A DNA stretch of 32,000 nucleotides from Zymomonas mobilis subsp. mobilis ATCC 10988 (GTDB taxonomy: Bacteria; Pseudomonadota; Alphaproteobacteria; Sphingomonadales; Sphingomonadaceae). The DNA lies in the NCBI RefSeq assembly GCF_000175255.2, contig NC_017262.1, forward strand, positions 1,989,774 to 2,021,773, given 5' to 3'. Shown here piece after piece: positions 3,511-21,236 of the stretch (the first letter of the stretch is position 1; the number at the start of each line of letters is the position of its first letter). Both the position numbers and the translations under genes were made by a program. The notes under the pieces are model-generated. The model was not told where the DNA came from and did not search any database. It saw nothing but the letters and a program-made list of their open reading frames with translations.

Positions 3511-3642
3511 GAAAGCAAGAAAGAACAAGTTTAAGATAGTTCTATCGCAAGTTTATTAAGGGCTGGTCGTTCAGAAATCTTTCTTGTAGGCTCCCCCCAT
3601 CGGCGTTTTTCAAAGCCCCATCCCAAGACAGAAAGATCAAAA

Positions 3643-5409: not shown

Positions 5410-5418
5410 GACATCAAA

Positions 5419-5463
5419 ACACCCCTGTAATCAAAGCGATAACGCTCTGGCTACAGGGGTGTT
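5419..5463. terminator. Bidirectional terminator hairpin between convergent ggt and ctrA
   Basis: ACACCCCTGTA (5419-5429) pairs with TACAGGGGTGT (5452-5462), extendable by 2 A-T pairs. T-rich sequence follows on both strands (TTTAAAT on +, TTTTGATG on -). Confidence 0.55.
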
Positions 5464-5543
5464 TAAATCGGTCAAAATATCCTGCTGATAGATACGATTC
5501 TTATCGTAACCGATCTAAAGTAAATCCACTCGCAACGGAAATT

Positions 5544-6248
5544 TTAAGCCTGCTGGCCTTCCAATTCGGCATGTTCTGCTTCGCGCAAGATGTAACCGCG
5601 TCCCCAGACCGTTTCGATATAATTTTCGTCAGGATAGGCTTTGTTCAGCTTTTTCCGCAGTTTGCAGACAAAGACATCAATAATTTTTAATTCCGGTTCA
5701 TCCATCCCACCATAAAGATGGTTCAAGAACATTTCTTTCGTGATGGTGGTGCCTTTTCTCAAAGACAGCAATTCCAATATGGCATATTCTTTACCGGTCA
5801 GATGAACAGGCTTGTTATCAATCTCGACTGTTTTACTATCAAGATTGACGGTTAAACGGCCTGTTTTAATAATTGACTGGGAATGGCCTTGGGAACGGCG
5901 AACAACGGCTTGAATACGGGCAATCAATTCTTCCTGATGGAAAGGCTTGGTCAAATAATCATCAGCCCCAAAGCCCAAAGCCCGCACTTTGGATTCCATT
6001 TCGGCAATACCAGACAATACAATGATCGGCGTTTTTACCTGCGCCGTCCGTAACGTCTTTAATACTTCATAGCCATGCATATCGGGCAAATTGAGATCAA
6101 GACAAATGATATCATAATCATACAGCTTGCCCAGATCGATGCCTTCTTCGCCAAGGTCTGTCGTATAGACATTGAAACGCTTTTTCGTCAGCATCAATTC
6201 GATAGATTTCGCCGTTGTCGGCTCATCTTCTATCAATAAAACACGCAT
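5544..6248 (-). CDS. ctrA: Cell-cycle response regulator CtrA (OmpR family)
   Basis: The 234-aa product is near-collinear with Caulobacter CtrA as recalled: [96 protein letters not shown]. Confidence 0.92.
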
Positions 6249-6434
6249 TCTCCATTCCCCGTTATAGCTGTCATACTATTATTATAGTTGACAGGTTAAC
6301 TACGCCCCCTGCCATCAACTATCTTTTTCCTAGATATCTCCGTATCTTTGATGAAAAAGAAAGAAAGCCAGCATTCCATGAATTTTTATTATGTGATCAA
6401 AAAGAAGAATGCTGACATCTATAATAATTTACGA

Positions 6435-7130
6435 TCAAGATTCTGTTTTATATTTTAACTCTAAAAAGCGCTGCTGAGTAGCCAATTTATCAAGATCATG
6501 ATGGGCAAGCTCTTCTTCTATGCGACCTAGTGCCTGATTGATCACATCTAGGCCGGTTGCAAGCTGTGAATCAGGGCTATCCAGACCAGCGCGTTTCTGT
6601 GTTCTTAAGTTAACGGGTATTTCGACATAGCCTTTAACCAATTCCGGCATTTCTTCACTGACCAATTTTCGCATCTGGGTCGCTGTCGGATCATCTTCCG
6701 GCAGTTTTTCGGTGACAGAGGACAAATGCGATAATTTATCAAGGATCGATTCTGCCAAAGGACGGGCAGGCGGCGGCAAAGCCTGTTTCTGGGCTGACAG
6801 CCATGAAGCGGCCTGCGACGGTAATTGTTTTAAAGACTGTTTTTGCAAATTTTCAATTTTAACCGGACGCGGCAAGGGCAGGGTCAAAGGTGCCAAAATA
6901 CTCCCCAAGACCAAGGCCGCAAAAGTCAGGATAATACCAGAAATGCCCAGCGGATGGATAAAACCAATAATAAAGGCGGCCAGTATAATCGCCGCATCCG
7001 TTACACATAGCCGCTTTAGTCGCCGTCCTAACAGGCTTTTCTTTGCAAAGGCGCGGCTTGCTTCTTGACCATCCCGAAGCCTTGCCAAAACAGCCTGCGC
7101 TTCCAAAAGTATTTGCTGATTACTGGCCAT
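6435..7130 (-). CDS. Two-TM membrane protein, tentatively XpaC-like (5-bromo-4-chloroindolyl phosphate hydrolysis family), a typical TelA partner
   Basis: The 231-aa ORF starts 9 nt after the TelA-like stop (TAAGGGAAATAAATG). Two adjacent hydrophobic helices (AAIILAAFIIGFIHPLGISGIILTFAALVLGSILAPL) are followed by a helical cytoplasmic tail. The family call rests on architecture and adjacency to telA, not on remembered motifs. Confidence 0.5.
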   Translation of the reverse strand: MASNQQILLEAQAVLARLRDGQEASRAFAKKSLLGRRLKRLCVTDAAIILAAFIIGFIHPLGISGIILTFAALVLGSILAPLTLPLPRPVKIENLQKQSLKQLPSQAASWLSAQKQALPPPARPLAESILDKLSHLSSVTEKLPEDDPTATQMRKLVSEEMPELVKGYVEIPVNLRTQKRAGLDSPDSQLATGLDVINQALGRIEEELAHHDLDKLATQQRFLELKYKTES

Positions 7131-7139
7131 TTATTTCCC

Positions 7140-8414
7140 TTACAAAGGCTTGAACGGATCTCCTGTCGGAACCGTTTTAGAAGCCGCCGCCGCAGGCGGT
7201 GCATTTTTGTCCTCTGCCTGCATCAACTGTTTCATTGCTTGGTCTTGACCTTGGCCGGAACCTTGCGCCCGCGCAATATAACCGCGTGATTTCTCAATTT
7301 CGTCAGACAAGACATCGACCGTCTGTTTCATCGAAGACAAGGCTTGGACTTTATATTGGTCAATAGAATCCATGGTTGCATAGATATTGCTAAAGGCACG
7401 CTTCAGAACATCGAGTGGGATCGTTGCCGATGCCGCTTGTTTCTGAATCTCTCCGGTCTGGTTTCTTAACATTTCGCCAGTGGAATCGATAATATTCGCC
7501 GTCGTGCTGTTCAAAGCATTGATCTGTTCCAGAACAAGCTTTTGGTTGGTCAAAGCCTGCGCCACGGTCACGGCTGTTTTTAGGGCGGCCACTGTCGTTG
7601 TCGAAGCGCGATCAACCCCTTTAATCAGTTCGATATTATTCTTTCTGACCAGATCCAATGCCAGATAGCCCTGAACACTCACGGCTAATTGGGTCAAAAG
7701 ATCTGTTACCCGTTGCCGGACATAGAACAGCGCGCTTTCCCGCAAGGTCTTGGCTTTGGCTGGATCGCTGATGTCCAGCTCATGACTTTTGGCTTCCAAC
7801 TGGCTATCCAGCGTTTTCGCCATATAAATCATCTGTTCCAGACGTTCCAACGTCGCCCATAAGGTCTGGCGCTCAACGTCAATCGCCGCATTATCTTTCA
7901 ACAATTCATCCTTACCGCTTTCAAGACTGGTAAGAATGGTGCCGATATGGGATTGCGCCGATTTATAGCTGTCGAAATAATCGCGGAGCTTGTTTCCGAA
8001 AGGAATAATACCAAAAATCTTCTTGGGCGCCGTTAAATCACCGCGTTTTCCGGGATCAAGGTCTTCGATCACCCGCCGCAACTGGGCAAGATTGGAACCA
8101 ATGGGGCTACTGCCATCCATGGCTTTAACCGGACGATCCAAAAAACGATTAGATTGATTGGCGGCTTCCCGAATTTCATTGCGTCCCAGATTGATGATAG
8201 AATCAACTTTTTTGCCAAATTCGGGGCTATTGGGATTTTCGGCCACCAGTTCTTCAATAAAGCCGCTCACCTTGGCTTCAAGCTGGCTTTTTTTGCCATC
8301 ATCCAATGGGACTAAACCATCGGCTTTTTCTGTCGAAACGGGTGGAACAGGATCAGGGGGAGTTAGCTTTAAATCAGCATTATTCTGACCAGCGGCATTA
8401 TTTTCTGTAACCAT
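7140..8414 (-). CDS. TelA/KlaA-family toxic anion resistance protein
   Basis: The product is about 424 aa. ATG 8414 is preceded by GGGGAG; TTG 8417 is an alternative start. The protein is long and helical with features I associate with PF05816: SPEFGKKVDSIINLGRNEIREAANQSNRFLDRPV, a YFDSYKSAQSHI block and a coiled-coil C-half. Confidence 0.8.
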   Translation of the reverse strand: MVTENNAAGQNNADLKLTPPDPVPPVSTEKADGLVPLDDGKKSQLEAKVSGFIEELVAENPNSPEFGKKVDSIINLGRNEIREAANQSNRFLDRPVKAMDGSSPIGSNLAQLRRVIEDLDPGKRGDLTAPKKIFGIIPFGNKLRDYFDSYKSAQSHIGTILTSLESGKDELLKDNAAIDVERQTLWATLERLEQMIYMAKTLDSQLEAKSHELDISDPAKAKTLRESALFYVRQRVTDLLTQLAVSVQGYLALDLVRKNNIELIKGVDRASTTTVAALKTAVTVAQALTNQKLVLEQINALNSTTANIIDSTGEMLRNQTGEIQKQAASATIPLDVLKRAFSNIYATMDSIDQYKVQALSSMKQTVDVLSDEIEKSRGYIARAQGSGQGQDQAMKQLMQAEDKNAPPAAAASKTVPTGDPFKPL

Positions 8415-8497
8415 CAAGCGGCACTCCCCAACTATCCATCTGTAAAATCTGGCCTTTTATTTCCGGTCTTCAAGAGACGAAAAGAAATTTAACGCTT

Positions 8498-9418
8498 TTA
8501 CCTGACCCATTCCAAACCGATTTCATTATAAATGTCGCGATCTTCATCCCATCTCGGGCTGACTTTAACATGCAGGAATAGATGAACTTTGCAGCCTAAA
8601 ATCTGGGATAATTCGGCACGGGCTTTACTGCCGATTTCTTTCAGCCTTGCACCATGATGACCGACAACAATCGCCTTTTGGGAATCGCGGGCGATCAAGA
8701 TTTGCTGATGAATAGCGACCGAACCATCTTTCCGCTCTTCATATTTTTCGGTTTCAACTGCGGCGGCATAGGGTAATTCATCATGAAGCTGTAAAAAGAT
8801 TTGTTCGCGGGTAATTTCTGCTGCCAACATACGATCCGTGACATCTGACACCTGATCTTCTGGGAAATGCCATGGGCTTTCCGGCATCATATCCGCCAAA
8901 GAACGCTTAAGATCGGCGACCCCATCTCCGGTTGTGGCCGAAACCATAAACAAGGCTTCCGGCTTGATCGCTTCATAAAGCTTTTGTGCCAAAGCCAGTA
9001 ATTCAGCTTTCGGGGTGATATCGACTTTATTCAGAATAATAACTTTGGGTTCTTTACGGGCGGCAACAGCTTCCACCAAAGGTTCAATTCGGCGGGTAAG
9101 ACCAGAAGAGGCATCCACCACCAAAGCCACGAGATTGGCACCTTCGGCACTGCCCCAAGCGGCGGCAACCATCGCGCGATCAAAACGCTTTTTCGGGGTA
9201 AAAATACCGGGCGTATCCACTAACAAGATCTGGGTCTGATCCTGCAAGGCAATACCCATTAAACGGGCGCGGGTTGTCTGCGCCTTGGGGCTGATAATGG
9301 CAATTTTCTGGCCAACCAACGCATTAACAAGGGTTGATTTACCAGCATTCGGCGCACCCACAATGGCGACCAGACCGCAATGCTGGGTATTCTCTGAAGG
9401 CGTATTCGTATCTTTCAT
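8498..9418 (-). CDS. era: GTPase Era
   Basis: The 306-aa product has G1 GAPNAGKSTL, G2 QTTR, G3 DTPG, G4 NKVD and a C-terminal KH domain (VAIHQQILIARDSQKAIVVGHHGARLKEIG). Confidence 0.95.
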   Translation of the reverse strand: MKDTNTPSENTQHCGLVAIVGAPNAGKSTLVNALVGQKIAIISPKAQTTRARLMGIALQDQTQILLVDTPGIFTPKKRFDRAMVAAAWGSAEGANLVALVVDASSGLTRRIEPLVEAVAARKEPKVIILNKVDITPKAELLALAQKLYEAIKPEALFMVSATTGDGVADLKRSLADMMPESPWHFPEDQVSDVTDRMLAAEITREQIFLQLHDELPYAAAVETEKYEERKDGSVAIHQQILIARDSQKAIVVGHHGARLKEIGSKARAELSQILGCKVHLFLHVKVSPRWDEDRDIYNEIGLEWVR

Positions 9419-9613: not shown

Positions 9614-10954
9614 TTACCGACCTAATTTGGTCAGACTGCGATCAAGCGCTCCGGTTAACCAATCAATATCGCCACTCTGGAAGGCCAGAGGTGGCCGCAA
9701 TTTCAGAACATTACCATAAGGCCCAGCAACCGAGGTCAGAACATGTTCGTCGCGAAGCGCTTCGATCAGATCGAGTGCCAATTCTTTATCCGGTTCTTTG
9801 CTGTTGCGATCTTTCACCAATTCAAAACCGATGAACAGACCGGCACCCCGAACATCTCCAACGGATTCATGCTTATCTTGCAGTTTTTTCAGTTCACCCA
9901 AAAGTTCAGCCCCGACTTTTTGGGTATGGGTCTGAAGATTTTCTTCCTTGATGACATTCAAAACGGCAGAGGCCGCCGCCATTGAAACCGGATTGCCGCC
10001 GAATGTGTTGAAATAAGGGACATGGTTACTAAAGGCTTCCATCACTTCCTTGCGGGCGAAAAGACCGGAAACCGGAATACCATTCCCCATCGGTTTTCCC
10101 GTTGTTACGACATCGGGAATTAAGCCATGCCGCCCAAATCCCCAGAAAGATTCACCGGTTCTAACAAAGCCCGGCTGCACTTCATCGGCAATGAAAATAC
10201 CGCCATTTTTGTGGACGACATCAATCGCCTCTTTCAAAAATCCGGCTTCACCTGGCAAGACACCATCCGAAGAGAAAATCGAATCCGCCATAAATCCGGC
10301 AAATTTGATGCCATGGGCAGCCATATCATCAATCTGCTTTTGCATTTCGGCGGCAAACCATGCACCGGCATCTTGTCCTGCCAAACGATAATGGTCAGGC
10401 GCAGGCACCAAACGCGTATTCGGGGACAAATTTTGACCGCTACCAAGGGCAGGGGATGCGCCAGAGGTCAGAAAACTGGTACCGTGATAGGATTCCTGCG
10501 TCACGATAATGCCGGTTCCACCCGACCATTCACATGCGATCCGCATTGCCAGATCATTGGCTTCGGATCCGGTGCACATATACATAGCGCGATTGATTTC
10601 TTCCGGCATGGTTGCCAAAATCGCTTCGGAATAATCAAGGATCGTTTCATGCAAATAGCGGGTATGGGTATTCAACCGGCCCATCTGCTCATAAACCGCT
10701 TCGATAACGGCAGGATGGCAATGACCGATGCTGGCAACATTGTTATAAACATCCAGATATTTATCACCATTGGCATCCCATAAATAAGCCCCTTTTCCGC
10801 GCACCAGATGGACAGGACGGCGATAAAAAAGGCGATAGGATGCGCCCAAAAGATCTTTACGGCGCTCGGTCAGGGAACGCGTTGCCTCATCCAAAGCGGC
10901 GGCATGTTCATCCCGAAAACTGTTCGTGTCCATAATGGTAGAGCGACTTGACAC
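9614..10954 (-). CDS. Class-III (PLP) aminotransferase-fold enzyme of the AGXT2L/ETNPPL phospho-lyase subfamily
   Basis: The 446-aa ORF starts at GTG 10954, preceded by AAGGAG (10961-10966) at a 6-nt spacing. Blocks are shared with human ETNPPL as recalled: YLD..NNVA..GHCHP, TGSEANDLA.R.A, FIADEVQ.GF.R.G..FW.F, PD.VT.GKPMGNG.PV (PLP Lys), YFNT.GGNPVS, NVLK.RPP. Confidence 0.85.
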   Translation of the reverse strand: MSSRSTIMDTNSFRDEHAAALDEATRSLTERRKDLLGASYRLFYRRPVHLVRGKGAYLWDANGDKYLDVYNNVASIGHCHPAVIEAVYEQMGRLNTHTRYLHETILDYSEAILATMPEEINRAMYMCTGSEANDLAMRIACEWSGGTGIIVTQESYHGTSFLTSGASPALGSGQNLSPNTRLVPAPDHYRLAGQDAGAWFAAEMQKQIDDMAAHGIKFAGFMADSIFSSDGVLPGEAGFLKEAIDVVHKNGGIFIADEVQPGFVRTGESFWGFGRHGLIPDVVTTGKPMGNGIPVSGLFARKEVMEAFSNHVPYFNTFGGNPVSMAAASAVLNVIKEENLQTHTQKVGAELLGELKKLQDKHESVGDVRGAGLFIGFELVKDRNSKEPDKELALDLIEALRDEHVLTSVAGPYGNVLKLRPPLAFQSGDIDWLTGALDRSLTKLGR

Positions 10955-11173
10955 AGTATTCTCCTTTTCAGGATTAAAAAGAAAACTAATGTTCCAATTA
11001 TGTCAGTCGTCCTTGAAACAAACTTGACGGCAGAAGACATTCTTAATTTTTTTATGTCAAAAGTTTCGTCTTTTATTTCTTTGCGGTCAAAAAAGGGTCG
11101 TCTCCAGCCAAGTTATAAATCTCAACCTCTTCTTATCATGACTCCAGAAAATAAACGTTCAGGAGTCTGCCAC

Positions 11174-12184
11174 ATGAATTCCCGACATGCCGATAATCTC
11201 GACACCTCCATTCTTTCCCAATTGGCAGCGCAAGCAATGGAGGCCTATCCTAAAGCCTATCAGGGAAAAATCCGGCTTTTAACGCGTTCGGAAAATGCGA
11301 CTTTTCACATTGCGGCATCTTCCGGTGAAAATTATGCCCTGCGCCTGCACCGTCCCCATTATCACGATAAACAAAGCATTACGGGCGAATTGGCATGGCT
11401 GAAAGCGTTACAGGAAGATATCGGTTTAACGGTGCCGCAAGCTATTCCTGACCGCGATGGGGAAGTGATTCAAACCCTAAAAGCGCCCGATGGCGCGCTG
11501 CGCTATGCGGTGCTTTTCAACTGGGTCGAAGGCGAAATGCCAACGGCTGATCTTGACCCTTCGCTGTTCCAAAGACTGGGCGAAGTGACCGCCCATCTGC
11601 ATCAGCATAGCCAACGCTGGGAAAAGCCGGATAATTTCAAACGTCTTATCTGGAATCATGAAAATATGGTGGGTGCCGACGGCTATTGGGGCGATTGGCG
11701 CGCCACTCCGGGGCTAGATTCAAACGGCATTATCATTATGCGTGAAGCTATGGAGCAAATCGGGCAATCCTTGGAAAAATTTGGCCAATCTTCCGACCGT
11801 TACGGCCTTATCCATGCGGATTTAAGATTAACCAATATTCTTATCCATGAAGGCGATACAAGGGCGATTGACTTTGATGACTGCGGCACTGGATGGTTTC
11901 TGCATGATCTCGCTGCGGCGATCAGTTTTGAAGAACATAATCCGGCCGCGCCTTTATGGGTCGAAAATTGGCTGAAAGGCTATGATCGAGTTCAGTCCCT
12001 TTCTCGGGAAGAAATTGATATTCTTCCAGCGCTTTTCGCCCAAAGAAGAATCCAAATGACGGCATGGGTTGGATCTCATGCGGATACCGATATGGCGCGC
12101 AGTTTAGGGGGCGACTGGCTGGCACATACGGTGCGCTTATGCCGTGACTATCTTGACGGAAAAACACCGCTTGGTGCTGCCTAA
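11174..12184 (+). CDS. APH/choline-kinase-fold small-molecule kinase (COG2334, homoserine kinase type II-like)
   Basis: The ORF is open from 11000, but ATG 11174 has AGGAG (11161-11165) 8 nt upstream. It has the catalytic loop LIHADLRLTNILI followed by IDFDDCG (Brenner and DFD motifs of the APH fold). Confidence 0.8.
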   Translation: MNSRHADNLDTSILSQLAAQAMEAYPKAYQGKIRLLTRSENATFHIAASSGENYALRLHRPHYHDKQSITGELAWLKALQEDIGLTVPQAIPDRDGEVIQTLKAPDGALRYAVLFNWVEGEMPTADLDPSLFQRLGEVTAHLHQHSQRWEKPDNFKRLIWNHENMVGADGYWGDWRATPGLDSNGIIIMREAMEQIGQSLEKFGQSSDRYGLIHADLRLTNILIHEGDTRAIDFDDCGTGWFLHDLAAAISFEEHNPAAPLWVENWLKGYDRVQSLSREEIDILPALFAQRRIQMTAWVGSHADTDMARSLGGDWLAHTVRLCRDYLDGKTPLGAA

Positions 12185-12220
12185 AAAACGATCCAATCCA
12201 GACTCTCTTTTCAGACTTCC

Positions 12221-12270
12221 AATCTCTTCCTTCATAAAATTTCACTATTTTATAAGGAAGAGATTTTTTT
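12221..12270 (+). terminator. Strong rho-independent terminator after the kinase gene
   Basis: AATCTCTTCCTTCATAAAAT (12221-12240) pairs with ATTTTATAAGGAAGAGATT (12247-12265). That is a roughly 19-bp stem with one bulge and a 6-nt loop, followed by a T run to 12270. Confidence 0.85.
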
Positions 12271-12387
12271 AAATTTTATATTGCAATTTGATGACATAAT
12301 ATGATGTTATCCATTTAGGATATAATTTTGGGCATATTCATAGACTCATTATCCTGATGAACCGCATGCCAAGGAAAGTCTGGAAAT

Positions 12388-13458
12388 ATGACATCTTCTC
12401 TAAATACAGCTTTCTCGAAAACCCTCTCTTCCTTTGAAGAAGTCCATCATGGTGTTCTTGCCGCCGCTGGAAGCGGACTTGGCGATTTTATTAAAAAAAC
12501 AGGCGGCGATGCTGACCGTGTCTTTGGGTCATGCGGCGTGGATCCGGCGATTATGGAACGCCCAACACACAGCCTTAGCCTCACCAATTATTGCCGCTTA
12601 ATGGAAGAAGCCGCAATCGATTCCCAAAATGGTAATTTCGGGTTGCATTATGGCAAGCAATTCCAGCCACAAAATCTTGGGTTAATCGGTTATATCGGTC
12701 TCTCTTCTCCGACATTGGGTGACGCCCTTTCCAATGTTGCAAAAGATTTTCACTGGCACCAACATGATACCTTAACCCGCTTTGTAAAACGGGAAAATCA
12801 ATGGCATTTTGAATATCAGGTCAGACATGGTGCCATTACAAGACGGCGGCAGGATGCCGAGCTTTCTATGGGGATGATTCTGAATATCATCCGCAGCGCG
12901 CTTGGTTCTAAATGGACGCCGCAAGAGGTCAATTTTGAACATTATCGGCCAGAACAGGCACATGAACATGAAAAAGTGTTTGGTGCGGCAGTCTGGTTTG
13001 AACAACCCTGCAACTCTATTGTGCTTTCTGAAAAAGACTTGATGCGCCCGATGCCGGGTTATGAACCGGTCTTATTAACGGTAATGCGGGAAACCATCCG
13101 CCGTCTAAATCGCCATAATGTGCCGCAATCATTCCCTGAACGGGTGAGGGCGATCATCCGTATCATGCTGCCCCAAGACGACTTTTCTCTTGAAAAGATT
13201 TCCGAAAAAATGGCGATGACGCCTTGGTCTTTGCAACGGCGGTTGAAAGAAGAAAATGTCACTTTTCTCACGTTGATAGATTCCGTCCGCAAAGAAATGG
13301 CTATCGACTATATGAAGCAACCTCATCTAACGATTTCAGATATTACTTTTATGCTGGGCTATTCCGAGGTCTGCGCGCTTTCACGGGCTTTTCGGCGCTG
13401 GTTCGGTGTCAGCCCCCGTGCATGGCGTAAAAATTATGCCAGTAATGCCAAGGCCTGA
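12388..13458 (+). CDS. AraC-family transcriptional regulator (N-terminal ligand/arabinose-binding-like domain plus C-terminal HTH)
   Basis: The ORF is 356 aa. The C-terminal AraC HTH reads SLEKISEKMAMTPWSLQRRLKEENVTFLTLIDSVRKEMAIDYM...ISDITFMLGYSEVCALSRAFRRWFGVSP. AAGGA lies upstream of ATG 12388. Confidence 0.85.
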   Translation: MTSSLNTAFSKTLSSFEEVHHGVLAAAGSGLGDFIKKTGGDADRVFGSCGVDPAIMERPTHSLSLTNYCRLMEEAAIDSQNGNFGLHYGKQFQPQNLGLIGYIGLSSPTLGDALSNVAKDFHWHQHDTLTRFVKRENQWHFEYQVRHGAITRRRQDAELSMGMILNIIRSALGSKWTPQEVNFEHYRPEQAHEHEKVFGAAVWFEQPCNSIVLSEKDLMRPMPGYEPVLLTVMRETIRRLNRHNVPQSFPERVRAIIRIMLPQDDFSLEKISEKMAMTPWSLQRRLKEENVTFLTLIDSVRKEMAIDYMKQPHLTISDITFMLGYSEVCALSRAFRRWFGVSPRAWRKNYASNAKA

Positions 13459-13777
13459 ATAAAAGGTCGCTGATAACACATAATAGGGCTTTGTTTTGAT
13501 CCTGCACCGGAATTTTTCCGTGCGGGATAATTTTTATACCGCCTCTCGCATCCTTATTTCGTCCCTCTCACTTACCAGAAAACCCTTTTGATAAGCCGCT
13601 TTTGGGTTATTCCTCTTAATCGACAGAGTTCTTTAAAAACGGTAAATTATCACGAAAGATTAAAATTTATTTTCAATAAACAACAAATTGTCATTAAGGG
13701 TCAAGTTTATATGCTTTCATTGCCGATATGGTTTTCTTGTGACTATAGAAAATCCGGTAAGGGGAGAGTCCTCCAAG

Positions 13778-15187
13778 ATGCCAGAAAAATCTCCGAAGCT
13801 TTCAAAAACGCTTAGCTCTTTTCATCTCTGGGGCATCGCCGTTGGCCTTGTGATCTCAGGTGAATATTTTGGCTGGAGCTATGGCTGGGCGACCGCGGGA
13901 ACCATGGGTTTTCTGATCGCGACGGTTATTGTTGCGGCTATTTATACCAGTTTCATTTTCAGCTTTACAGAACTCACCTGCTCTATTCCGCAGGCAGGGG
14001 GGCCTTTCGCCTATAGCTTTCGGGCTTTAGGTAAATGGGGTGGTGCCATTGCCGGTATGGCAACCTTGGTTGAATTTTTATTCGCCCCTCCGGCTATTGC
14101 TCTAGCCATTGGTTCCTATCTCAATGTGCAATTTCCGTCACTTTCTCCCAAAATGGCGGCGGCCTGTGCTTATATCGTTTTCATGGCTTTGAATATCGTG
14201 GGTGTCAGAATCGCCGCGACATTCGAGCTTTTCATCACTGTTGCCGCTATTTTTGAATTACTGGTTTTCATGGGGGTCGTTGCACCTGCTTTTTCATGGG
14301 AACAATTCCTGCATGACGGCTGGGGTGTTGCCAGCCATTTCGACATTCAGGCCATTGGCGGGATATTTGCTGCTGTGCCTTTTGCGATCTGGTTCTTTCT
14401 GGCAATTGAAGGGGTCGCTATGGCCGCTGAAGAAGCCAAAAATCCCCGCCGTTCTATCCCGATCGCTTATACCGCTGGTATCTTAACGCTGGTTTCTCTT
14501 GCTTTCGGTGTGATGGTTTTTGCTGGTGGTTCTATGGATTGGCATCAGCTTGCCAATTTGAACGATCCACTACCTCAAGCGATGAAACATGTGGTCGGCG
14601 CGCATAGCGGCTGGTTGCATATGCTTGTTTTCCTCGGGTTGTTCGGGCTAGTTTCTTCCCTGCATGGTATCATCATGGGCTATGGTCGCCAGATTTTTGC
14701 CTTGGCAAGGGCAGGTTTTCTTCCGGCAACGCTTGGGAAATTACATATCAAACTGCAAACCCCTTATGCCGCGACTATCGCCGGTGGTTTAGTCGGTATC
14801 GCCGCTATCTTTGCCGATGATGTTCTTTCTTTCGGCGGTCATTCTCTGACGGCTATTCTGGTAACAATGTCGGTTCTTGGCTCGCTTACCATGTATGTGT
14901 TGAGCATGGCCAGCCTGTTCCGCTTGCGTCAAACCATGCCGGATTTACCACGCCCTTACAAAGCGCCTCTTTATCCTTTCTTGCCTGCCTTGGCGCTGAT
15001 TGGGGCTTTCTTCCTGCTCGCCGCCGTTATTTACTATAATGCCGGCATTTCCTTCATCTATGCGCTTTTAATGTGCATTGCCTGCCCGCTTTGCCTTTAC
15101 AGCTACAAGCGGAGCCAAAACAAAAAAACAGAAGAAAACGATATCACGACATCTGCTATTCTCGCTGCCGAGGGGGCGGAAGAATAA
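13778..15187 (+). CDS. APC-superfamily amino acid/amine permease, ethanolamine permease (Eat)-like
   Basis: The ORF is open from 13688, but ATG 13778 is preceded by GGGGAGAG (13761-13768). It has about 12 hydrophobic segments. The N-terminal blocks LWGIAVGLVISGEYFGWSYG, ELTCSIPQAGGPFAY and EFLFAPPAIALAIG match what I recall of the ethanolamine permease family. The subfamily call is from memory only. Confidence 0.78.
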   Translation: MPEKSPKLSKTLSSFHLWGIAVGLVISGEYFGWSYGWATAGTMGFLIATVIVAAIYTSFIFSFTELTCSIPQAGGPFAYSFRALGKWGGAIAGMATLVEFLFAPPAIALAIGSYLNVQFPSLSPKMAAACAYIVFMALNIVGVRIAATFELFITVAAIFELLVFMGVVAPAFSWEQFLHDGWGVASHFDIQAIGGIFAAVPFAIWFFLAIEGVAMAAEEAKNPRRSIPIAYTAGILTLVSLAFGVMVFAGGSMDWHQLANLNDPLPQAMKHVVGAHSGWLHMLVFLGLFGLVSSLHGIIMGYGRQIFALARAGFLPATLGKLHIKLQTPYAATIAGGLVGIAAIFADDVLSFGGHSLTAILVTMSVLGSLTMYVLSMASLFRLRQTMPDLPRPYKAPLYPFLPALALIGAFFLLAAVIYYNAGISFIYALLMCIACPLCLYSYKRSQNKKTEENDITTSAILAAEGAEE

Positions 15188-15231
15188 GCGGTCAACGCAG
15201 CGACTGTTTTTGTGAAAAAAGGATGTCCGAC

Positions 15232-16665
15232 ATGCGCTATTACACCTTATCTTTTTGCTTTGGTTGCTGTCTTATCGGCATGGTCGGCGTGCAATCGCCT
15301 GCCTTGGCAGAAGTCCAAACGGGCGATACGCCAACGCCACCGGCCGAACTTTTGCAAAAGGCTGCTCCTGACAAAGCTGACTATGAACAGTCACAAGACC
15401 CTGATTTACCCGCTCTTGAAGCGGGAAATCTGTTTCATAGTAAAGGCGGAAAACTTTCTTATTGGGACGGCCTTGTCGGTCATGCCATGATCGAAGGGGG
15501 TGCGAATGGAAACCCTGTTACCCATTCAGGCCGCAACTTCGGGCAGTATTTTACTGATAAATCCAATACAGGTACGCTTAACCAGATCACGGCTTCTATT
15601 TCTCATCCCGTAACCCCAATCGGAAAAGGCTATGGCATCGGCTTTGTTGTGGAAATGCTCTACGGTTCCGATGCGCGGGTCGATCCTACCTTAGGCATGG
15701 GGGACGGCGCTTTAAAAGGCGGCTATCAATGGGCGCCAACTCAGGCGCATATTGATGTTCATACCCCTTGGCTTTTCAAACATGGTATCGATTTCCAAAT
15801 CGGGCAGATGTATGGCTTGATGGGGGTCGAAGGTATCCCAGCCCTTGCACGTCCCTTCTACAGCTACAACTACAGTTCGGATTATATCGTTCCCTTTGAA
15901 ACGGTAGGGATCGTCGCGACAATGCATGTCTCTCGCGATATTGATTTCCTGCTTGGTATTGATTCCGGTAACGCGTCTACTTTCGGTAATGCGACCGTCA
16001 ATAAACAACCCAAAGGTTATGCGGGTCTCGTCTTTAAAAACCTGATGGATAACAAAATGACCATCCGCGCCATTTCCCATTTAGGGCCCGCGGGTAACTC
16101 CGGCACCGCTGTAACCTCGGCTGATGGCTGGACGAGTGCTGGTATCGGTTCGGCTGCCAATAAACTGATGCAATATAATGTTGAAGTCAGCATGAGCTAT
16201 CGCTTCACGGATAAAGTCACCTTTACAGAAGACATCATCGTCGATCGGGATGAATCCATCCGCGACACCGCTTATGGCTTCACCTCTTATGTGGCATGGG
16301 ATTTACGGAAAAACCTAACTCTGAATTTCCGTGGAGAAATCTTCCGTGATAATACTGGCGGGGTCATTACCCAATTTATTGGTAGCGATTCCTACAGAAG
16401 TTACCTCAGAAATCGGCCTTATGCTTATTACAGCGCCCCCGCGACCACTTATGGCGAGCTGACCGCTGGCGTGTCATGGAAACCGCCGGTTATCAACGAT
16501 CATCTGGGGAAGGGGACTTTCACTTTACGGCCAGAACTCCGACTGGATAGATCTTTAAACGGCACACATCCCTTTAACAGAAGTGCTTCGGTCATGAATC
16601 CGGTGGTTACAAACGGAACCCGAAATATGTTCTGGGTCAGTTGTGACGCGATCCTCAGTTTCTGA
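15232..16665 (+). CDS. Outer-membrane beta-barrel porin (unclassified)
   Basis: ATG 15232 is preceded by AAAGGA at an 8-nt spacing (alternatives ATG 15223, ORF start 15073). It has a signal peptide MRYYTLSFCFGCCLIGMVGVQSPALA/EV, alternating aromatic/polar beta-strand texture throughout, and a C-terminal ...AILSF ending in Phe, as in OMPs. Confidence 0.65.
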   Translation: MRYYTLSFCFGCCLIGMVGVQSPALAEVQTGDTPTPPAELLQKAAPDKADYEQSQDPDLPALEAGNLFHSKGGKLSYWDGLVGHAMIEGGANGNPVTHSGRNFGQYFTDKSNTGTLNQITASISHPVTPIGKGYGIGFVVEMLYGSDARVDPTLGMGDGALKGGYQWAPTQAHIDVHTPWLFKHGIDFQIGQMYGLMGVEGIPALARPFYSYNYSSDYIVPFETVGIVATMHVSRDIDFLLGIDSGNASTFGNATVNKQPKGYAGLVFKNLMDNKMTIRAISHLGPAGNSGTAVTSADGWTSAGIGSAANKLMQYNVEVSMSYRFTDKVTFTEDIIVDRDESIRDTAYGFTSYVAWDLRKNLTLNFRGEIFRDNTGGVITQFIGSDSYRSYLRNRPYAYYSAPATTYGELTAGVSWKPPVINDHLGKGTFTLRPELRLDRSLNGTHPFNRSASVMNPVVTNGTRNMFWVSCDAILSF

Positions 16666-16734: not shown

Positions 16735-16810
16735 TGGTGCCGGGTGAGGGACTCGAACCCCCATGGTCGCTACTTACAAGGTAGGTGCCTAACCATTCGG
16801 CCAACCCGGC
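16735..16810 (-). tRNA. tRNA, most likely tRNA-Thr(UGU)
   Basis: The reverse complement is 76 nt: GCCGGGT-TG-GCC..GGC-..CCTAC-CTTGTAA-GTAGC..GGGGG-TTCGAGT-CCCTC-ACCCGGC-A-CCA. The acceptor and T arms are perfect and CCA is encoded. The only workable anticodon stem puts UGU in the loop (U33, A37). Its top pair is a C:C mismatch and the variable region is 6 nt, so the isotype call is less certain than the tRNA call. Confidence 0.75.
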
Positions 16811-16963: not shown

Positions 16964-17704
16964 TTGGCTGATAAACGCTTTTTTGGAACAAAGACGTTTC
17001 CTAATCAAGAAAAGGCTTTAAAAGCTAAGATTATGAATAATGATGCTTTCATAAGCTGGATTGAAAAAAATTTAGGCCATCGGCCTAAAGATCCGGCCTT
17101 GTTTTTACGAGCCATGACTCATCCCAGTCATGGCAACAGCGATTATCAAAGATTAGAGTTTTTAGGCGACCGTGTTTTAGGATTGGTCATTGCCAATTGG
17201 TTATACGACCTGTTCCCTCGCGAACCGGAAGGCAAATTGTCCCGACGATTAAACAGCCTTGTTTCAGGGGCTAGCTGCGCCAGCATTGCGCGGATTGTCG
17301 GACTTCCTCAATGGCTCCGTCTGGGAAAACAGGCGCGCGATGACGGCGCGGCGGCCTCTGACAATGTCTTGGGCGATGTGATGGAAGCCATGATTGGTGC
17401 CATCTTCTTGGAATCCGGTATCGAAGCCGCAGGCAAACTTATTCATAAATACTGGGCGCCTTTGGTGACGGGACAGGAATCCGCCCCGAAACATCCGAAA
17501 TCGGCTTTGCAGGAATGGGCAGCCGCCCATAACCGCCGCCCGCCTGTTTATGAAATTGTCAGTCGGACAGGCCCCCAGCATAATCCTTGCTTTACCATTC
17601 AGGTTTCTATTGCCGGTGTCGGTGAAGCCAGTGCCGAAGGCTCTTCAAAGCAGGAAGCCCAAACGGCTGCTGCTCAAGCGCTTTTGGATATTTTGGCGCA
17701 ATAA
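16964..17704 (+). CDS. rnc: Ribonuclease III
   Basis: The product is 246 aa. TTG 16964 is preceded by GAGAGGAGG (16945-16955) at an 8-nt spacing; ATG 17033 is an alternative start. It has the RNase III signature QRLEFLGDRVLG, the catalytic DVMEAMIGAIF block and a C-terminal dsRBD (PKSALQEW...GPQHNPCFTIQV...GSSKQEAQTAAAQALL). Confidence 0.92.
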   Translation: MADKRFFGTKTFPNQEKALKAKIMNNDAFISWIEKNLGHRPKDPALFLRAMTHPSHGNSDYQRLEFLGDRVLGLVIANWLYDLFPREPEGKLSRRLNSLVSGASCASIARIVGLPQWLRLGKQARDDGAAASDNVLGDVMEAMIGAIFLESGIEAAGKLIHKYWAPLVTGQESAPKHPKSALQEWAAAHNRRPPVYEIVSRTGPQHNPCFTIQVSIAGVGEASAEGSSKQEAQTAAAQALLDILAQ

Positions 17705-18501: not shown

Positions 18502-18944
18502 AATCCAGATCCTTTCAGGGACAGATAATGATGAAAATGGTTATCCTGATTTTAAAATATTCAAATAATTTCAGATACAAAAGTTCTTCACAAAGATACG
18601 AAATTATCTTTTAAAAAAGACCAAACCATTTCAACATCTACTATGGGGTTAAACGCATGACATGAAATTTAGATCATTTTTTCTCGTTATATATCTATTT
18701 TTTCGCACGATTGGGCGCAGACTATTATCTTGTTATTTAGAAACCCATAATCAGAATTTTTGTTCGCCAAAAACTAGCTATCCCCGTGTAATCAAAAACA
18801 AAATCTAACCGCTCTTCATTTTTCTTTGGTCTGTCCCCATGCCTTGAAAATGGATTTTGTTTCGTTTCCTTACATTCCAGCCACTTGGCTCAAAATCTTG
18901 TCCCTTTTGTTGTTATAGGAAGAACAACCAAGGATATAATCATC

Positions 18945-19790
18945 ATGGGACATATTCTGATTACGGGTGCCGGTAGCGGTTTTGGGAAAGAAATTGCTTT
19001 CCGTCTGGCAGAACAAGGACATGACGTTATTGCTGCGGTCGAAATCCAGCCCCAGATATTTGCCTTGCAGCAAGAAGCGCAAAAACGCGGCCTCTCTTTA
19101 TCAATAGAAAAACTGGACATCACCGATCCGGCTGATCGTGCCAAAGCATGGCAATGGGACGTTGATATTTTACTGAATAATGCTGGCATTTCCGAAGGCG
19201 GTTCGGTTACCGATATTCCGGCAGAAAATCTTCGGAAACAATTTGAAGTCAATGTGATAGGTACAATCTTGCTTACGCAAGGCTTCGCTCGCGAGATGGT
19301 CAAAAATAAAAAAGGCCGAATTGTTTTTATGTCCTCGGTCGCGGGTCTTACCGTTGACCCTTTTACGGGAGCCTATTCGGCTTCCAAACATGCGATAGAA
19401 GCCTTTGCGATCGCCTTGGATAAAGAATTGAAATATTTTGGCATCCAAATTGCAACTATTAACCCGGGGCCTTTCCTAACGGGTTTCAATGACCGGATGT
19501 TTGAAACATGGAAAAGCTGGCGCGACACCCCTGAAGATAGGGTTTTTGACTATAGCCAACTTGCTTTCCCGCATGAACAATTCGACCCAGAAGAGGTTAT
19601 CACAACAACGCTTTCTGTTCTGACGGGAAAAACCAAGCATTATCGCAATCTGGTGCCTGCCCAAATGGAAAAGGATACTGAAAAACAGATCAATCATGTC
19701 TGGGATAAATTGCAAAATAATCCAGAAGGGGGCGCGAAAGATCCTCTGGTGCAGAAAGCCTATCAAATAAGGCCCGGAACGCCTGCCTAA
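18945..19790 (+). CDS. Short-chain dehydrogenase/reductase (classical SDR)
   Basis: ATG 18945 is preceded by AAGGA; the ORF is open from 18885. It has the cofactor motif ILITGAGSGFG, NNAG, the catalytic S...YSASKHA and PG after the active site. Confidence 0.85.
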   Translation: MGHILITGAGSGFGKEIAFRLAEQGHDVIAAVEIQPQIFALQQEAQKRGLSLSIEKLDITDPADRAKAWQWDVDILLNNAGISEGGSVTDIPAENLRKQFEVNVIGTILLTQGFAREMVKNKKGRIVFMSSVAGLTVDPFTGAYSASKHAIEAFAIALDKELKYFGIQIATINPGPFLTGFNDRMFETWKSWRDTPEDRVFDYSQLAFPHEQFDPEEVITTTLSVLTGKTKHYRNLVPAQMEKDTEKQINHVWDKLQNNPEGGAKDPLVQKAYQIRPGTPA

Positions 19791-19952
19791 GACGGTAATT
19801 TACTGCAATTTGGTTTAAAATTAAGAAACAGTATGAAGCAATACGGACATATTTCCATTTTACAAAAATAACAGTTTTTTATAATATCGAACTACAAAAG
19901 ATATCCCCCTTTTGTAAGCAGATAGTTGTAGCTTTCTCAATTCTCTTAATTC

Positions 19953-19981
19953 GGCCCTGCTTTTGCAGGGTCTTTTTTTTG
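19953..19981 (+). terminator. Rho-independent terminator after the SDR gene
   Basis: CCCTGC (19955-19960) pairs with GCAGGG (19965-19970) around loop TTTT, followed by TCTTTTTTTTG. Confidence 0.8.
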
Positions 19982-20063
19982 CTCTCAACACAAAGCAAGT
20001 CTAGCCGATGCCGCTATAGATAGCCGCAGTTGCATGATAAATTTTAAGGAAATAAAATAGGAC

Positions 20064-20139
20064 TGGTGGGCGATGACAGGCTCGAACTGCCGACATCCTC
20101 CGTGTAAAGGAGGCGCTCTACCAACTGAGCTAATCGCCC
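20064..20139 (-). tRNA. tRNA-Val(UAC)
   Basis: The reverse complement GGGCGATTAGCTCAGTTGGTAGAGCGCCTCCTTTACACGGAGGATGTCGGCAGTTCGAGCCTGTCATCGCCCACCA forms a canonical 76-nt cloverleaf. The anticodon stem is CCTCC/GGAGG, the loop is TTTACAC, and CCA is encoded. Confidence 0.95.
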
Positions 20140-20300
20140 TATCGTTTTGCCAGACCCCGATGCCAGACTATCGCGCTTGGTGCAAGAGAAATTATTAAAA
20201 ATTATAGCTTTAGGGCTAAATTTATTCTTACCTGAATGAACGCCAAGGCGAAGAAAAGACATCGGACGCTCCCGCTGCCTAGGGCGGAAGATAGTCTGCA

Positions 20301-20337
20301 TAAAAAAGGCTGGCATCCTGTTTCTATAATGCCAGCC
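20301..20337 (-). terminator. Rho-independent terminator after aguB
   Basis: GGCTGGCAT (20308-20316) pairs with ATGCCAGCC (20329-20337). A6 at 20302-20307 gives a U-run on the minus strand. Confidence 0.8.
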
Positions 20338-20376
20338 TCTTCCAATCAGATCAAAATAGAACGTCTAAATTTTAAT

Positions 20377-21225
20377 TTAGCGGTCTTCGCTAATCCGATG
20401 ATATAATTCTGGTCGCCGATCACGGAAAAAGCCGAAAGCCGCGCGATGTTGTCTTATTTGCTCAATATCAAAATGAGCGACCAAAACGCCGCTTTCATCT
20501 TTGCCAAAGGCTTGCACTAAATCGCCACGCTGATCGGCAATAAAGCTATGACCATAAAAAGATAGCGTAGCTTCCTGACCAATCCGGTTCGATGCGATGA
20601 CAGGCACGACATTAGAAACGGCATGACCAATCATAGCTCGCCGCCACAAACGGCTGGTATCCAGATCGGGATCATGGGGCTCATTTCCAATCGCTGTCGG
20701 GAAAAAGAGCAACTCAGCACCCATCAGCATCATGGCACGCGCCGTTTCAGGATACCATTGATCCCAACAGATACCGACACCTATCTTGATGCCGCCACAA
20801 TCCCAGACTTTAAAACCGCTATTACCGGGGCGGAAATAGAATTTTTCTTCATAGCCGGGGCCATCGGGAATATGACTTTTCCGGTAAACGCCCATAACCT
20901 CGCCATCTGAATTGATCATGGCAAGGCTGTTATAATAATGGGGCGGATCGCTTTCAAAAAAGCTGGTTGGAATAGTCACTTTCAACCGCTTAGCTAGCTT
21001 TTGCATCGCTAAGACAACGGGATGTTTTTCCACTGGCTTGGCGCGTGCAAAACAGCTCTCGTCTTCGGTCGCACAGAAATAATGCCCTTCAAATAATTCG
21101 GGCGGTAAAATAATTTTGGCACCTTGCGCCGCCGCTTCTTCGACCAATACTGAAACACGATCAATATTGGTCTGGATATCATCCGTCAAAGCCAGCTGTA
21201 ATGCCGCTACAGTGATTTCAGTCAT
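20377..21225 (-). CDS. aguB: N-carbamoylputrescine amidase (nitrilase/CN-hydrolase superfamily)
   Basis: The ATG 21225 start (MTEITVAALQ) is preceded by AGGA and lies 11 nt after the aguA stop. Catalytic triad context is present: PELFEGHYF (Glu), YRKSHIPD (Lys), GVGICWDQWYPE (Cys). The product is collinear with AguB as recalled. Confidence 0.9.
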   Translation of the reverse strand: MTEITVAALQLALTDDIQTNIDRVSVLVEEAAAQGAKIILPPELFEGHYFCATEDESCFARAKPVEKHPVVLAMQKLAKRLKVTIPTSFFESDPPHYYNSLAMINSDGEVMGVYRKSHIPDGPGYEEKFYFRPGNSGFKVWDCGGIKIGVGICWDQWYPETARAMMLMGAELLFFPTAIGNEPHDPDLDTSRLWRRAMIGHAVSNVVPVIASNRIGQEATLSFYGHSFIADQRGDLVQAFGKDESGVLVAHFDIEQIRQHRAAFGFFRDRRPELYHRISEDR

Positions 21226-21236
21226 CAGTAATTCCT

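Follow-up and report, generated by a model that had tools for sequence, protein, structure and literature searches.

We analyzed a stretch of DNA from Zymomonas mobilis subsp. mobilis ATCC 10988 (contig NC_017262.1, positions 1,989,774 to 2,021,773; 32,000 nucleotides, hereafter called the window) and focused our attention on a cluster of five genes encoding a pyridoxal phosphate (PLP)-dependent enzyme, an APH-fold kinase, an AraC-type regulator, a permease, and a porin (Table 1). Judged from sequence comparisons and gene contexts, this cluster, which corresponds to ZMO1382-ZMO1377 in the ZM4 numbering, probably represents a self-contained, B12-independent module for the utilization of ethanolamine by import, phosphorylation, and cleavage, and we assign a probability of about 0.78 to this interpretation. 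The chemistry and both enzyme types are already known; new are the operator described below and a cassette that is shared with the B12-dependent eutBC operons.

According to our proposal, ethanolamine would enter the periplasm via the BBP2 porin and the cytoplasm via the Eat permease, as suggested by the families of the two proteins and by the presence of the same pair in eutBC operons. The kinase would then convert ethanolamine and ATP to O-phosphoethanolamine, which would fit its homology to an aminopropanol kinase and its linkage and fusion with the lyase. Subsequently, the PLP enzyme would release phosphate, ammonia, and acetaldehyde by 1,2-elimination, a reaction suggested by its placement with human ETNPPL and the Arthrobacter enzyme A1RDF1 and by its lost carboxylate-binding residues. 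The ammonia would be assimilated, so that nitrogen would be gained for one ATP, and the acetaldehyde would join the normal pool of pyruvate decarboxylase and alcohol dehydrogenase. This use of a native intermediate would account for the lack of a dedicated aldehyde enzyme or microcompartment in the cluster. Expression of the kinase and of the permease-porin unit would be activated by the AraC regulator through GGTCAA-N15-GGTCAAG repeats in their promoters, with ethanolamine or a close derivative as inducer. The operator is a conserved sequence feature, and its binding by the regulator and the inducer are presumed; likewise, we infer the substrate specificity of the kinase (ethanolamine or 1-amino-2-propanol) and the activity of the lyase. 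An import-kinase-lyase route for an amino alcohol had already been inferred in an earlier note on this DNA, and each of its elements that can be tested computationally held, namely the lyase clade of the PLP enzyme, the match of the kinase to 6EF6, the fused family PRK06148, and the match of the permease to TIGR00908.

The earlier note had described the PLP enzyme as similar to ETNPPL rather than to GABA or ornithine transaminases and had called for its placement relative to both groups. The two best matches among all PDB sequences were human ETNPPL (6TOR; 353.7 bits, E 1.4e-104) and the Arthrobacter enzyme (5G4I; 318 bits, E 1e-93). The third match had an E value of 2e-53, every non-lyase PDB sequence scored at most 185 bits, and GABA, ornithine, and acetylornithine transaminases were found at 1e-47 or worse. 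This gap of about 50 orders of magnitude in E value to transaminases and racemases confirms the described similarity. The sequence identity was 43.0% to ETNPPL and 38.6% to A1RDF1, compared to 23-29% to GabT, PuuE, ArgD, and PatA of Escherichia coli. We aligned the PLP enzyme of the window and eight orthologues with the two lyases and these four class-III transaminases, and in the resulting neighbor-joining tree it grouped with ETNPPL and A1RDF1. Hence, both the PDB search and the tree place the protein with the lyases.

The residues that contact the cofactor are kept (K287, D257, Q260, and T317, corresponding to GabT K268, D239, Q242, and T297). In GabT, the substrate carboxylates are bound by R398, R141, and the gating residue E211; the PLP enzyme of the window and all eight orthologues have K418, T159, and S229 instead. 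At the same three positions, ETNPPL has K/H/C and A1RDF1 K/N/T, while GabT, ArgD, and PuuE have R/R/E and PatA has R/K/E. Based on these two lyases and four transaminases, the three positions may serve as a signature that defines lyases. A further 28 positions, including R99, N71/N72, N291, and N316, are invariant in the lyase group and different in all four transaminases. The score against the PbfA equivalog was 196.7 bits, with a cutoff of 525. Within the class-III subgroup, lyases are rare exceptions, and the elimination of phosphate is documented for ETNPPL and one close relative (PMC8154272). Because of the PDB score gap and the loss of the transaminase carboxylate-binding residues, the assignment of the PLP enzyme as a candidate phospho-lyase of the ETNPPL/A1RDF1 type (EC 4.2.3.2 class) is supported. 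The context, with an Eat permease and a eutBC-type cassette, argues for a substrate derived from ethanolamine rather than for 5-phosphohydroxylysine.

The best PDB match of the kinase was 6EF6 (E 2.7e-66, 38.8% identity over 309 residues), which is named an aminopropanol kinase (PMC7314540); an amicoumacin kinase followed at 1e-23. Both the catalytic loop (H214-A-D216-L-R-L-T-N221) and the metal-binding motif (D233-F-D235) are intact. NCBIfam models for SrkA-type and homoserine kinases matched only weakly and far under their cutoffs. These results support a small-molecule kinase of the APH fold that is most similar to aminopropanol kinase. In PRK06148, an NCBIfam family model of 1015 positions, the kinase aligns with 26-291 and the PLP enzyme with 575-1010. 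Since the two proteins match the two ends of this model, both activities are fused in other organisms. As for the translation start, the 336-aa form of the kinase is the annotated one, and a longer alternative open reading frame (ORF) begins at 11000. The predicted operator would lie inside this longer ORF, and therefore the annotated start is favored.

To assess the linkage of these genes, we collected loci from a genome collection by a scan with an alignment of lyase orthologues (the best 80 of 379 relatives) and added loci that were fetched via the kinase. The genes for lyase, kinase, and AraC regulator were found within 10 kb of each other in 27 loci, 23 of which also contain a permease gene. 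These loci belong to Zymomonas, Gluconacetobacter, Gluconobacter, Halomonas, Zymobacter, Celerinatantimonas, Acinetobacter, Klebsiella indica, Rosenbergiella, Pantoea ananatis and Pantoea allii, and Pectobacterium. The linkage of the three genes across alpha- and gammaproteobacteria is more than chance. Together with the match to 6EF6 and the fused family PRK06148, it is consistent with the view of the earlier note that an APH-fold kinase stands beside a phospho-lyase and that relatives of the two are often adjacent or fused. A compact form is found in Pectobacterium aroidearum, where lyase and permease genes share one strand and the genes for kinase and AraC regulator diverge on the other; the identities to the Zymomonas proteins are 74% (lyase), 57% (kinase), 56% (AraC regulator), and 64% (permease).

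Other arrangements occur as well. In many genomes of Erwinia, Pantoea, and Tatumella, the lyase gene stands apart, next to a divergent gene for a DeoR regulator, and in Erwinia tasmaniensis the permease-kinase-AraC triad is kept together with the lyase gene elsewhere. In most loci of Erwinia, Pantoea, Tatumella, and Acinetobacter, the DeoR gene starts ~150-950 bp ahead of the lyase gene, even where the AraC gene is present, and this pairing implies a second layer of lyase control. Some Acinetobacter clusters carry a different APC permease with 37-39% identity. The Zymomonas lyase is 74-80% identical to the proteins from gammaproteobacteria and acetic acid bacteria, and no other member of the Sphingomonadales was present among the best 80 of 379 lyase relatives. 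Because of this high identity across classes and the missing Sphingomonadales, we suggest lateral transfer among sugar-rich, plant-associated bacteria.

Some clusters contain accessory genes. In Gluconobacter sphaericus, three extra genes between regulator and kinase encode a TonB-dependent receptor, a phospholipase C with a Tat signal (758 bits against the PC-PLC equivalog, cutoff 580), and a HAD-family protein. A homologous HAD lipoprotein with 31% identity to the latter is encoded in Acinetobacter baylyi and Acinetobacter soli and has 4GXT and the phosphorylcholine phosphatase 4AS2 as PDB relatives; the clusters of these two species also carry genes for a zinc alcohol dehydrogenase and a TonB-dependent receptor. 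A 436-aa Acinetobacter protein was considered as a porin analogue and rejected: it does not resemble the porin and is a lipoprotein of the HAD family related to 4GXT and PchP. Accessory genes are located at 2809-8587 of locus L034, at 11828-15464 and 18730-20865 of locus L062, and also in loci L047, L053, and L076. The gene contents suggest a supply chain that would lead from phospholipid via the phosphorylated head group to free ethanolamine and its uptake, with an extracellular release. Choline has no primary amine and is impossible as a substrate of a PLP enzyme. The accessory genes also suggest that hosts without an alcohol dehydrogenase flux of the Zymomonas type may add an aldehyde enzyme of their own.

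The permease scored 568.3 bits over its full length against the equivalog TIGR00908, 'ethanolamine permease' (TC 2.A.3.5; cutoff 381.75), and its description as Eat-like in the earlier note is thus backed by a curated family cutoff. The identity to the permeases of three eutBC operons was 77.5%, 75.4%, and 67.1%, and that to permeases of kinase-type clusters was 61-67%. Accordingly, the first two permeases from eutBC operons (Gluconobacter and Acetobacter; 75-78%) are closer than any permease from a kinase cluster. The porin gene follows the permease gene after a gap of 36 bp without a terminator in between, and the two are probably cotranscribed. The signal peptide of the porin ends with ...SPALA|EVQ. 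All relatives outside Zymomonas are from Acetobacteraceae (50-64% identity), and the porins encoded in eutBC operons are 53-64% identical to the Zymomonas protein. In five of the seven homologue contexts examined, the porin gene comes immediately after eutB-eutC-permease (Gluconobacter japonicus, Acetobacter thailandicus, Asaia bogorensis, Swaminathania salitolerans, and Acetobacter aceti); one homologue adjoins a LysR-regulated catabolic cluster. A more distant homologue (49% identity; Acetobacter locus L096, 2346-7362) lies directly 3' of methylamine dehydrogenase genes similar to mauB-E-D-A. The latter context hints that members of this BBP2 subfamily are general channels for small primary amines.

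The AraC regulator accompanies the kinase in all 27 loci. Over its full length, it is 41% identical to the regulator that is encoded divergently from eutBC in Gluconobacter (E 1e-92). An orthology to EutR was rejected, as only a 53-residue segment of the helix-turn-helix (HTH) region aligns with the E. coli protein (27 bits). The regulator also scored above the cutoff of NCBIfam NF049968, 'QhpR' (302.5 bits, cutoff 250). No genes for a qhp amine dehydrogenase were found around the regulator gene in the window. An identity as QhpR was likewise rejected, since the regulator travels with kinase and permease or with eutBC and has no amine dehydrogenase genes nearby; related amine-cluster regulator is the better label. 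A literature search on QhpR for a comparison of the operators returned only unrelated acronyms. NF049968 also names regulators in other ethanolamine clusters without amine dehydrogenase genes, and public annotations probably over-use this name systematically.

A direct repeat, (G)GTCAA-N16-GTCAAG (or GGTCAA-N15-GGTCAAG), is located 55-100 bp upstream of the kinase orthologues of at least nine genera. A repeat period of 21 bp is typical of activator sites of the AraC family. We derived a weight matrix from 13 kinase-promoter sites outside Zymomonas and scanned both strands of the window. The top match (score 16.3) ends 65 bp before the ATG of the permease gene and the second match (14.1) ends 54 bp before the ATG of the kinase gene (Table 1). 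The third match scored 11.5, and the maximum score in simulated 32-kb sequences had a mean of 11.0 with a standard deviation of 2.5. That both top matches lie in the two expected promoter regions and in the expected orientation can not plausibly be ascribed to chance. The permease operator overlaps a match to the -35 and -10 elements of a sigma-70-like promoter (13688-13715), but the consensus scans for promoters and terminators did not rise above background and count for little. We predict that the AraC regulator is an ethanolamine-responsive activator.

The same elements are found in B12-dependent systems. The eutBC loci of acetic acid bacteria hold homologues of the permease, the porin, the AraC regulator, and the operator. 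In the loci of G. japonicus and A. thailandicus, a divergent gene for an AraC-type regulator is located upstream of eutB. When we applied the kinase-promoter matrix to these two regulator-bearing loci, its top match in both cases was the intergenic region between the AraC gene and eutB, facing eutB, with scores of 25.3 in Gluconobacter (next match 11.6) and 12.5 in Acetobacter. Regulator, operator, permease, and porin are thus common to both types of locus, and therefore one cassette serves either EutBC or a core of kinase and phospho-lyase. We regard this sharing as the strongest available evidence that ethanolamine is the likely substrate and that kinase and lyase would replace EutBC.

A corresponding phenotype has been reported. 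In a Biolog analysis, ZM4 'appeared to utilize ethanolamine (PM3, D9)' as nitrogen source (PMC2836469), and the nitrogen scavenging on ethanolamine that had been proposed in the earlier note fits this result, to which no genes have been assigned. According to a model paper from 2020, genes for ethanolamine use are not known; its reaction table contains ZMO1378 for the transport step only and lacks ZMO1381 and ZMO1382 (PMC7451989). A Z. mobilis model from 2023 is said to use ethanolamine, and transcriptome papers mention the genes of the cluster by generic names only. In the literature that we searched, we found no gene-level description of a bacterial kinase plus phospho-lyase route for ethanolamine, which is not proof of absence.

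We compared the cluster with known systems. Similar to human ETNPPL (AGXT2L1, 6TOR), the PLP enzyme has a class-III fold (43% identity), retains the PLP lysine, aspartate, and glutamine, shows the exchange of arginine to lysine at the position of GabT R398, and has lost the equivalents of R141 and E211. In both systems, a lyase is functionally paired with an APH-fold kinase, in humans also by the paralogue PHYKPL and the hydroxylysine kinase HYKK (Veiga-da-Cunha et al. 2012, as cited in PMC8154272). Unlike the human genes, those of Zymomonas form a catabolic uptake module together with permease, porin, and regulator genes, and among the PDB sequences compared, the partner kinase most resembles the mycobacterial aminopropanol kinase. 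A1RDF1 from Arthrobacter aurescens TC1 (5G4I/5G4J), a bacterial class-III enzyme deposited as a phospholyase, is likewise related (38.6% identity) and has losses at the same three transaminase positions, but it is less similar to the Zymomonas PLP enzyme than human ETNPPL is. It was reportedly characterized as an isolated enzyme and not as part of a pathway. PbfA, the (R)-1-hydroxy-2-aminoethylphosphonate ammonia-lyase, shares the class-III fold and also catalyzes a 1,2-elimination instead of a transamination (PMC8154272), but neither phnW, phnX, nor other phosphonate genes are located near the gene for the Zymomonas PLP enzyme.

The RMM/aminoacetone-utilization locus of Mycobacterium smegmatis, which contains the gene for the best solved relative of the kinase (6EF6), also holds a class-III aminotransferase-like gene and one for a GabP-type permease (PMC7314540; PMC6620236). 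It thus resembles the Zymomonas cluster in its set of kinase, class-III PLP enzyme, and APC permease. In contrast, its shell proteins, amino-propanol dehydrogenase, CoA-acylating aldehyde dehydrogenase, and GntR regulator have no counterparts in the Zymomonas cluster, where the permease is of the Eat type and is joined by a porin and an AraC regulator. Compared to the classical EutBC system, substrate (ethanolamine) and end products (acetaldehyde and ammonia) would be the same, but EutBC depends on adenosylcobalamin, while the Zymomonas route would depend on ATP and PLP. The AraC regulator also differs from EutR of the enteric eut operon, to which it is unrelated outside the HTH region.

In 1973, Jones, Faulkner and Turner (Biochem J) reportedly described a kinase for amino alcohols and a phospho-lyase for amino alcohol O-phosphates in Erwinia carotovora and Pseudomonas. 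The proposed route is said to lead from ethanolamine via phosphoethanolamine to acetaldehyde, ammonia, and phosphate, and the work reportedly consisted of enzymology without genes being assigned. The E. carotovora group is now named Pectobacterium. The chemistry is the same as proposed here, and Pectobacterium carries the four-gene cluster; the activities from 1973 may thus be encoded by this type of cluster, which would probably also assign genes to a 50-year-old orphan bacterial pathway. We see about an even chance that all of these observations reflect a portable sensing and uptake cassette with two unrelated cores, that the Zymomonas cluster is a chimera from donors similar to acetic acid bacteria, and that the kinase-type cluster is the basis of the orphan amino alcohol kinase/phospho-lyase pathway of Erwinia.

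Several observations weigh against the interpretation as an ethanolamine module. Our tree, with ETNPPL and A1RDF1 as its lyases, does not fix the place of the PLP enzyme within the lyase clade. The nearest characterized relative of the kinase prefers 1-amino-2-propanol and shares only 38.8% identity with it. Taken singly, the scores of the two predicted operators are modest, and the simulations reached them in 4% and 10% of the trials. No copy of the operator faces the lyase gene on either strand of the window. Of 82 loci, 65 carry a divergent DeoR gene of their own beside the lyase gene, but Zymomonas has none. The earlier note had assumed a route without EutBC and microcompartment: this holds for the cluster, as genes for EutB, EutC, or BMC-H/T/P shell proteins were not found in the window, but for the remainder of the Z. 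mobilis genome the lack of EutBC is taken from the literature and not from a genome scan. The Biolog result is worded as 'appeared to utilize' (PMC2836469), and the later modeling study did not include a re-test (PMC7451989).

We weighed these points together with three other explanations. The same mechanism of kinase and phospho-lyase could act on 1-amino-2-propanol, derived from the breakdown of aminoacetone or threonine, or on some other small amino alcohol; in that case, propionaldehyde would be formed, and ethanolamine would be no more than a side substrate. The only close solved relative of the kinase is indeed the M. smegmatis aminopropanol kinase, the different permease in some Acinetobacter clusters suggests some variation of the substrate, and the Erwinia and Pseudomonas enzymes of 1973 were reportedly active on both ethanolamine and 1-aminopropan-2-ol. 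But the Zymomonas permease scores above the ethanolamine-permease cutoff and is 75-78% identical to permeases of eutBC operons, regulator and operator are common to these operons as well, and both characterized lyase relatives act on phosphoethanolamine according to PDB molecule names and reference titles. Moreover, ZM4 was positive on ethanolamine (PMC2836469). Overall, we consider 1-amino-2-propanol unlikely to be the main substrate.

Alternatively, the enzymes could act as proposed in a module that mainly recycles phosphoethanolamine and phospholipid head groups of endogenous or host origin, for membrane turnover or detoxification. The lyase gene of most Erwiniaceae, which stands alone with the DeoR gene and far from kinase and permease, is compatible with a source of phosphoethanolamine that does not require the kinase, and some clusters include genes for a phospholipase C and a PchP-like phosphatase. 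However, the Zymomonas lyase adjoins importer, porin, and kinase, which is sensible only for an external, unphosphorylated substrate; a secreted phospholipase and an extracytoplasmic phosphatase in the other organisms would yield external ethanolamine and thereby fit uptake, and the Biolog phenotype concerns external ethanolamine (PMC2836469). A recycling function is therefore very unlikely in our view. Even less credible is an ordinary omega-transaminase that lies by coincidence next to an unrelated antibiotic, homoserine, or protein kinase of the APH type. The current database name of the PLP enzyme ('aspartate aminotransferase family protein'), a Pfam family dominated by transaminases, and the weak SrkA-type and homoserine kinase matches of the kinase, far under the cutoffs, would point in this direction. 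Against it stand the PDB score gap, which puts the enzyme with the lyases, the loss of all three GabT-type carboxylate-handling residues, the adjacency that is kept in about 27 loci of two proteobacterial classes, and the match of both proteins to one fused family.

The ethanolamine interpretation would provide a gene-reaction assignment (ZMO1378, ZMO1381, and ZMO1382) for an orphan phenotype of an industrial ethanol producer with curated models. Hundreds of proteobacterial genes named 'aspartate aminotransferase family protein' or 'phosphotransferase' probably encode a B12-independent ethanolamine route that is reportedly known only from enzymology of the 1970s; annotation pipelines and pathway predictors in which ethanolamine use is equated with eutBC would overlook it. 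If the reading of a portable cassette with two unrelated cores is true, the AraC regulator would represent a third type of ethanolamine-responsive transcription factor that has not been described so far, and the porin would belong to a family of small-amine channels. The shared cassette would be a natural example of the non-orthologous displacement of a catabolic core and a candidate for an ethanolamine-responsive promoter system.

Table 1. Features of the Z. mobilis cluster and its borders (positions refer to the window)
Feature	Position	Strand	Remarks
PLP enzyme, candidate ethanolamine-phosphate phospho-lyase	9614-10954	-	446 aa; Pfam Aminotran_3 (PF00202) E 2.7e-76; ZMO1382 orthologue
Predicted AraC-regulator operator 5' of kinase	11080-11120	+	GGTCAA at 11085, AGCCAA(G) at 11106, 21-bp period
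Candidate ethanolamine/amino-alcohol kinase	11174-12184	+	336 aa; APH (PF01636) E 5.9e-25; ZMO1381 orthologue
AraC-type regulator, PF12625 sensor domain	12388-13458	+	Pfam Arabinose_bd and HTH_18; ZMO1380
Predicted operator 5' of permease-porin unit	13673-13713	+	strong proximal half-site GGTCAAG at 13699, weak distal half-site
Ethanolamine permease, Eat family, APC superfamily	13778-15187	+	469 aa; TIGR00908; ZMO1378
Outer-membrane BBP2 (OmpL-like) porin	15223-16665 (annotated start 15232)	+	PF07642 E 1.9e-37; ZMO1377
era	8498-9418	-	bounds cluster on one side
tRNA-Thr(tgt)	16735-16810	-	bounds cluster on other side
rnc	16964-17704	+	beyond tRNA-Thr

All five genes were confirmed by ORFs and domain calls at the coordinates and on the strands that had been given in the earlier note, and no further non-overlapping ORF of at least 80 aa was found between them. 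AEH63536-39 of strain ATCC 10988 are exact copies of four of the five cluster proteins, with AAV90006, AAV90005, AAV90004, and AAV90002 as their ZM4 orthologues; the porin, when started at 15223, is 100% identical over 99% of its length to an annotated Z. mobilis protein. The literature names ZMO1382 an 'aspartate aminotransferase family protein', ZMO1380 an AraC regulator, and ZMO1378 an ethanolamine transporter. From the numbering, we infer that the kinase is ZMO1381 and the porin ZMO1377. An Rfam scan returned two tRNAs only, without a riboswitch or leader in the cluster.

The genes era and rnc, which are commonly found in one operon, point apart in Zymomonas, with the 7-kb cluster and tRNA-Thr in between, and the order is the same in subsp. 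francensis. The 3' end of tRNA-Thr faces the cluster. A genomic island at this tRNA gene was considered and rejected, as there is no att-like repeat of at least 12 nt in the window and both GC content and GC content at third codon positions (GC3) match those of the flanking genes. There is no sign of a recent insertion, and any insertion or inversion at era/rnc is old.

A number of other genes in the window were recorded. A 568-aa pyruvate decarboxylase (29300-31006, +), which matches the Z. mobilis structures 2WVA and 1ZPD over its full length, is encoded 13 kb from the cluster; this closeness is probably coincidental, but the enzyme illustrates that acetaldehyde, the predicted product, is central to the native metabolism. 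The genes for an agmatine deiminase-type protein (PAD_porph) and for a carbon-nitrogen hydrolase at 20377-22217 (-) overlap; the two enzymes are a customary pair for the conversion of agmatine to putrescine. The region 23521-26768 (-) contains a gene for an 840-aa Reg_prop/Y_Y_Y/GGDEF protein and, ahead of it and overlapping by 7 nt, a 243-aa ORF that matches Reg_prop weakly. Both ORFs may be parts of one gene for a sensor diguanylate cyclase that is split by a frameshift, or the start may have been wrongly chosen. The region 6435-8417 (-) encodes a 425-aa TelA-like toxic-anion-resistance protein followed by a 231-aa membrane protein without a Pfam match, and these two genes sit between era and a response regulator gene.

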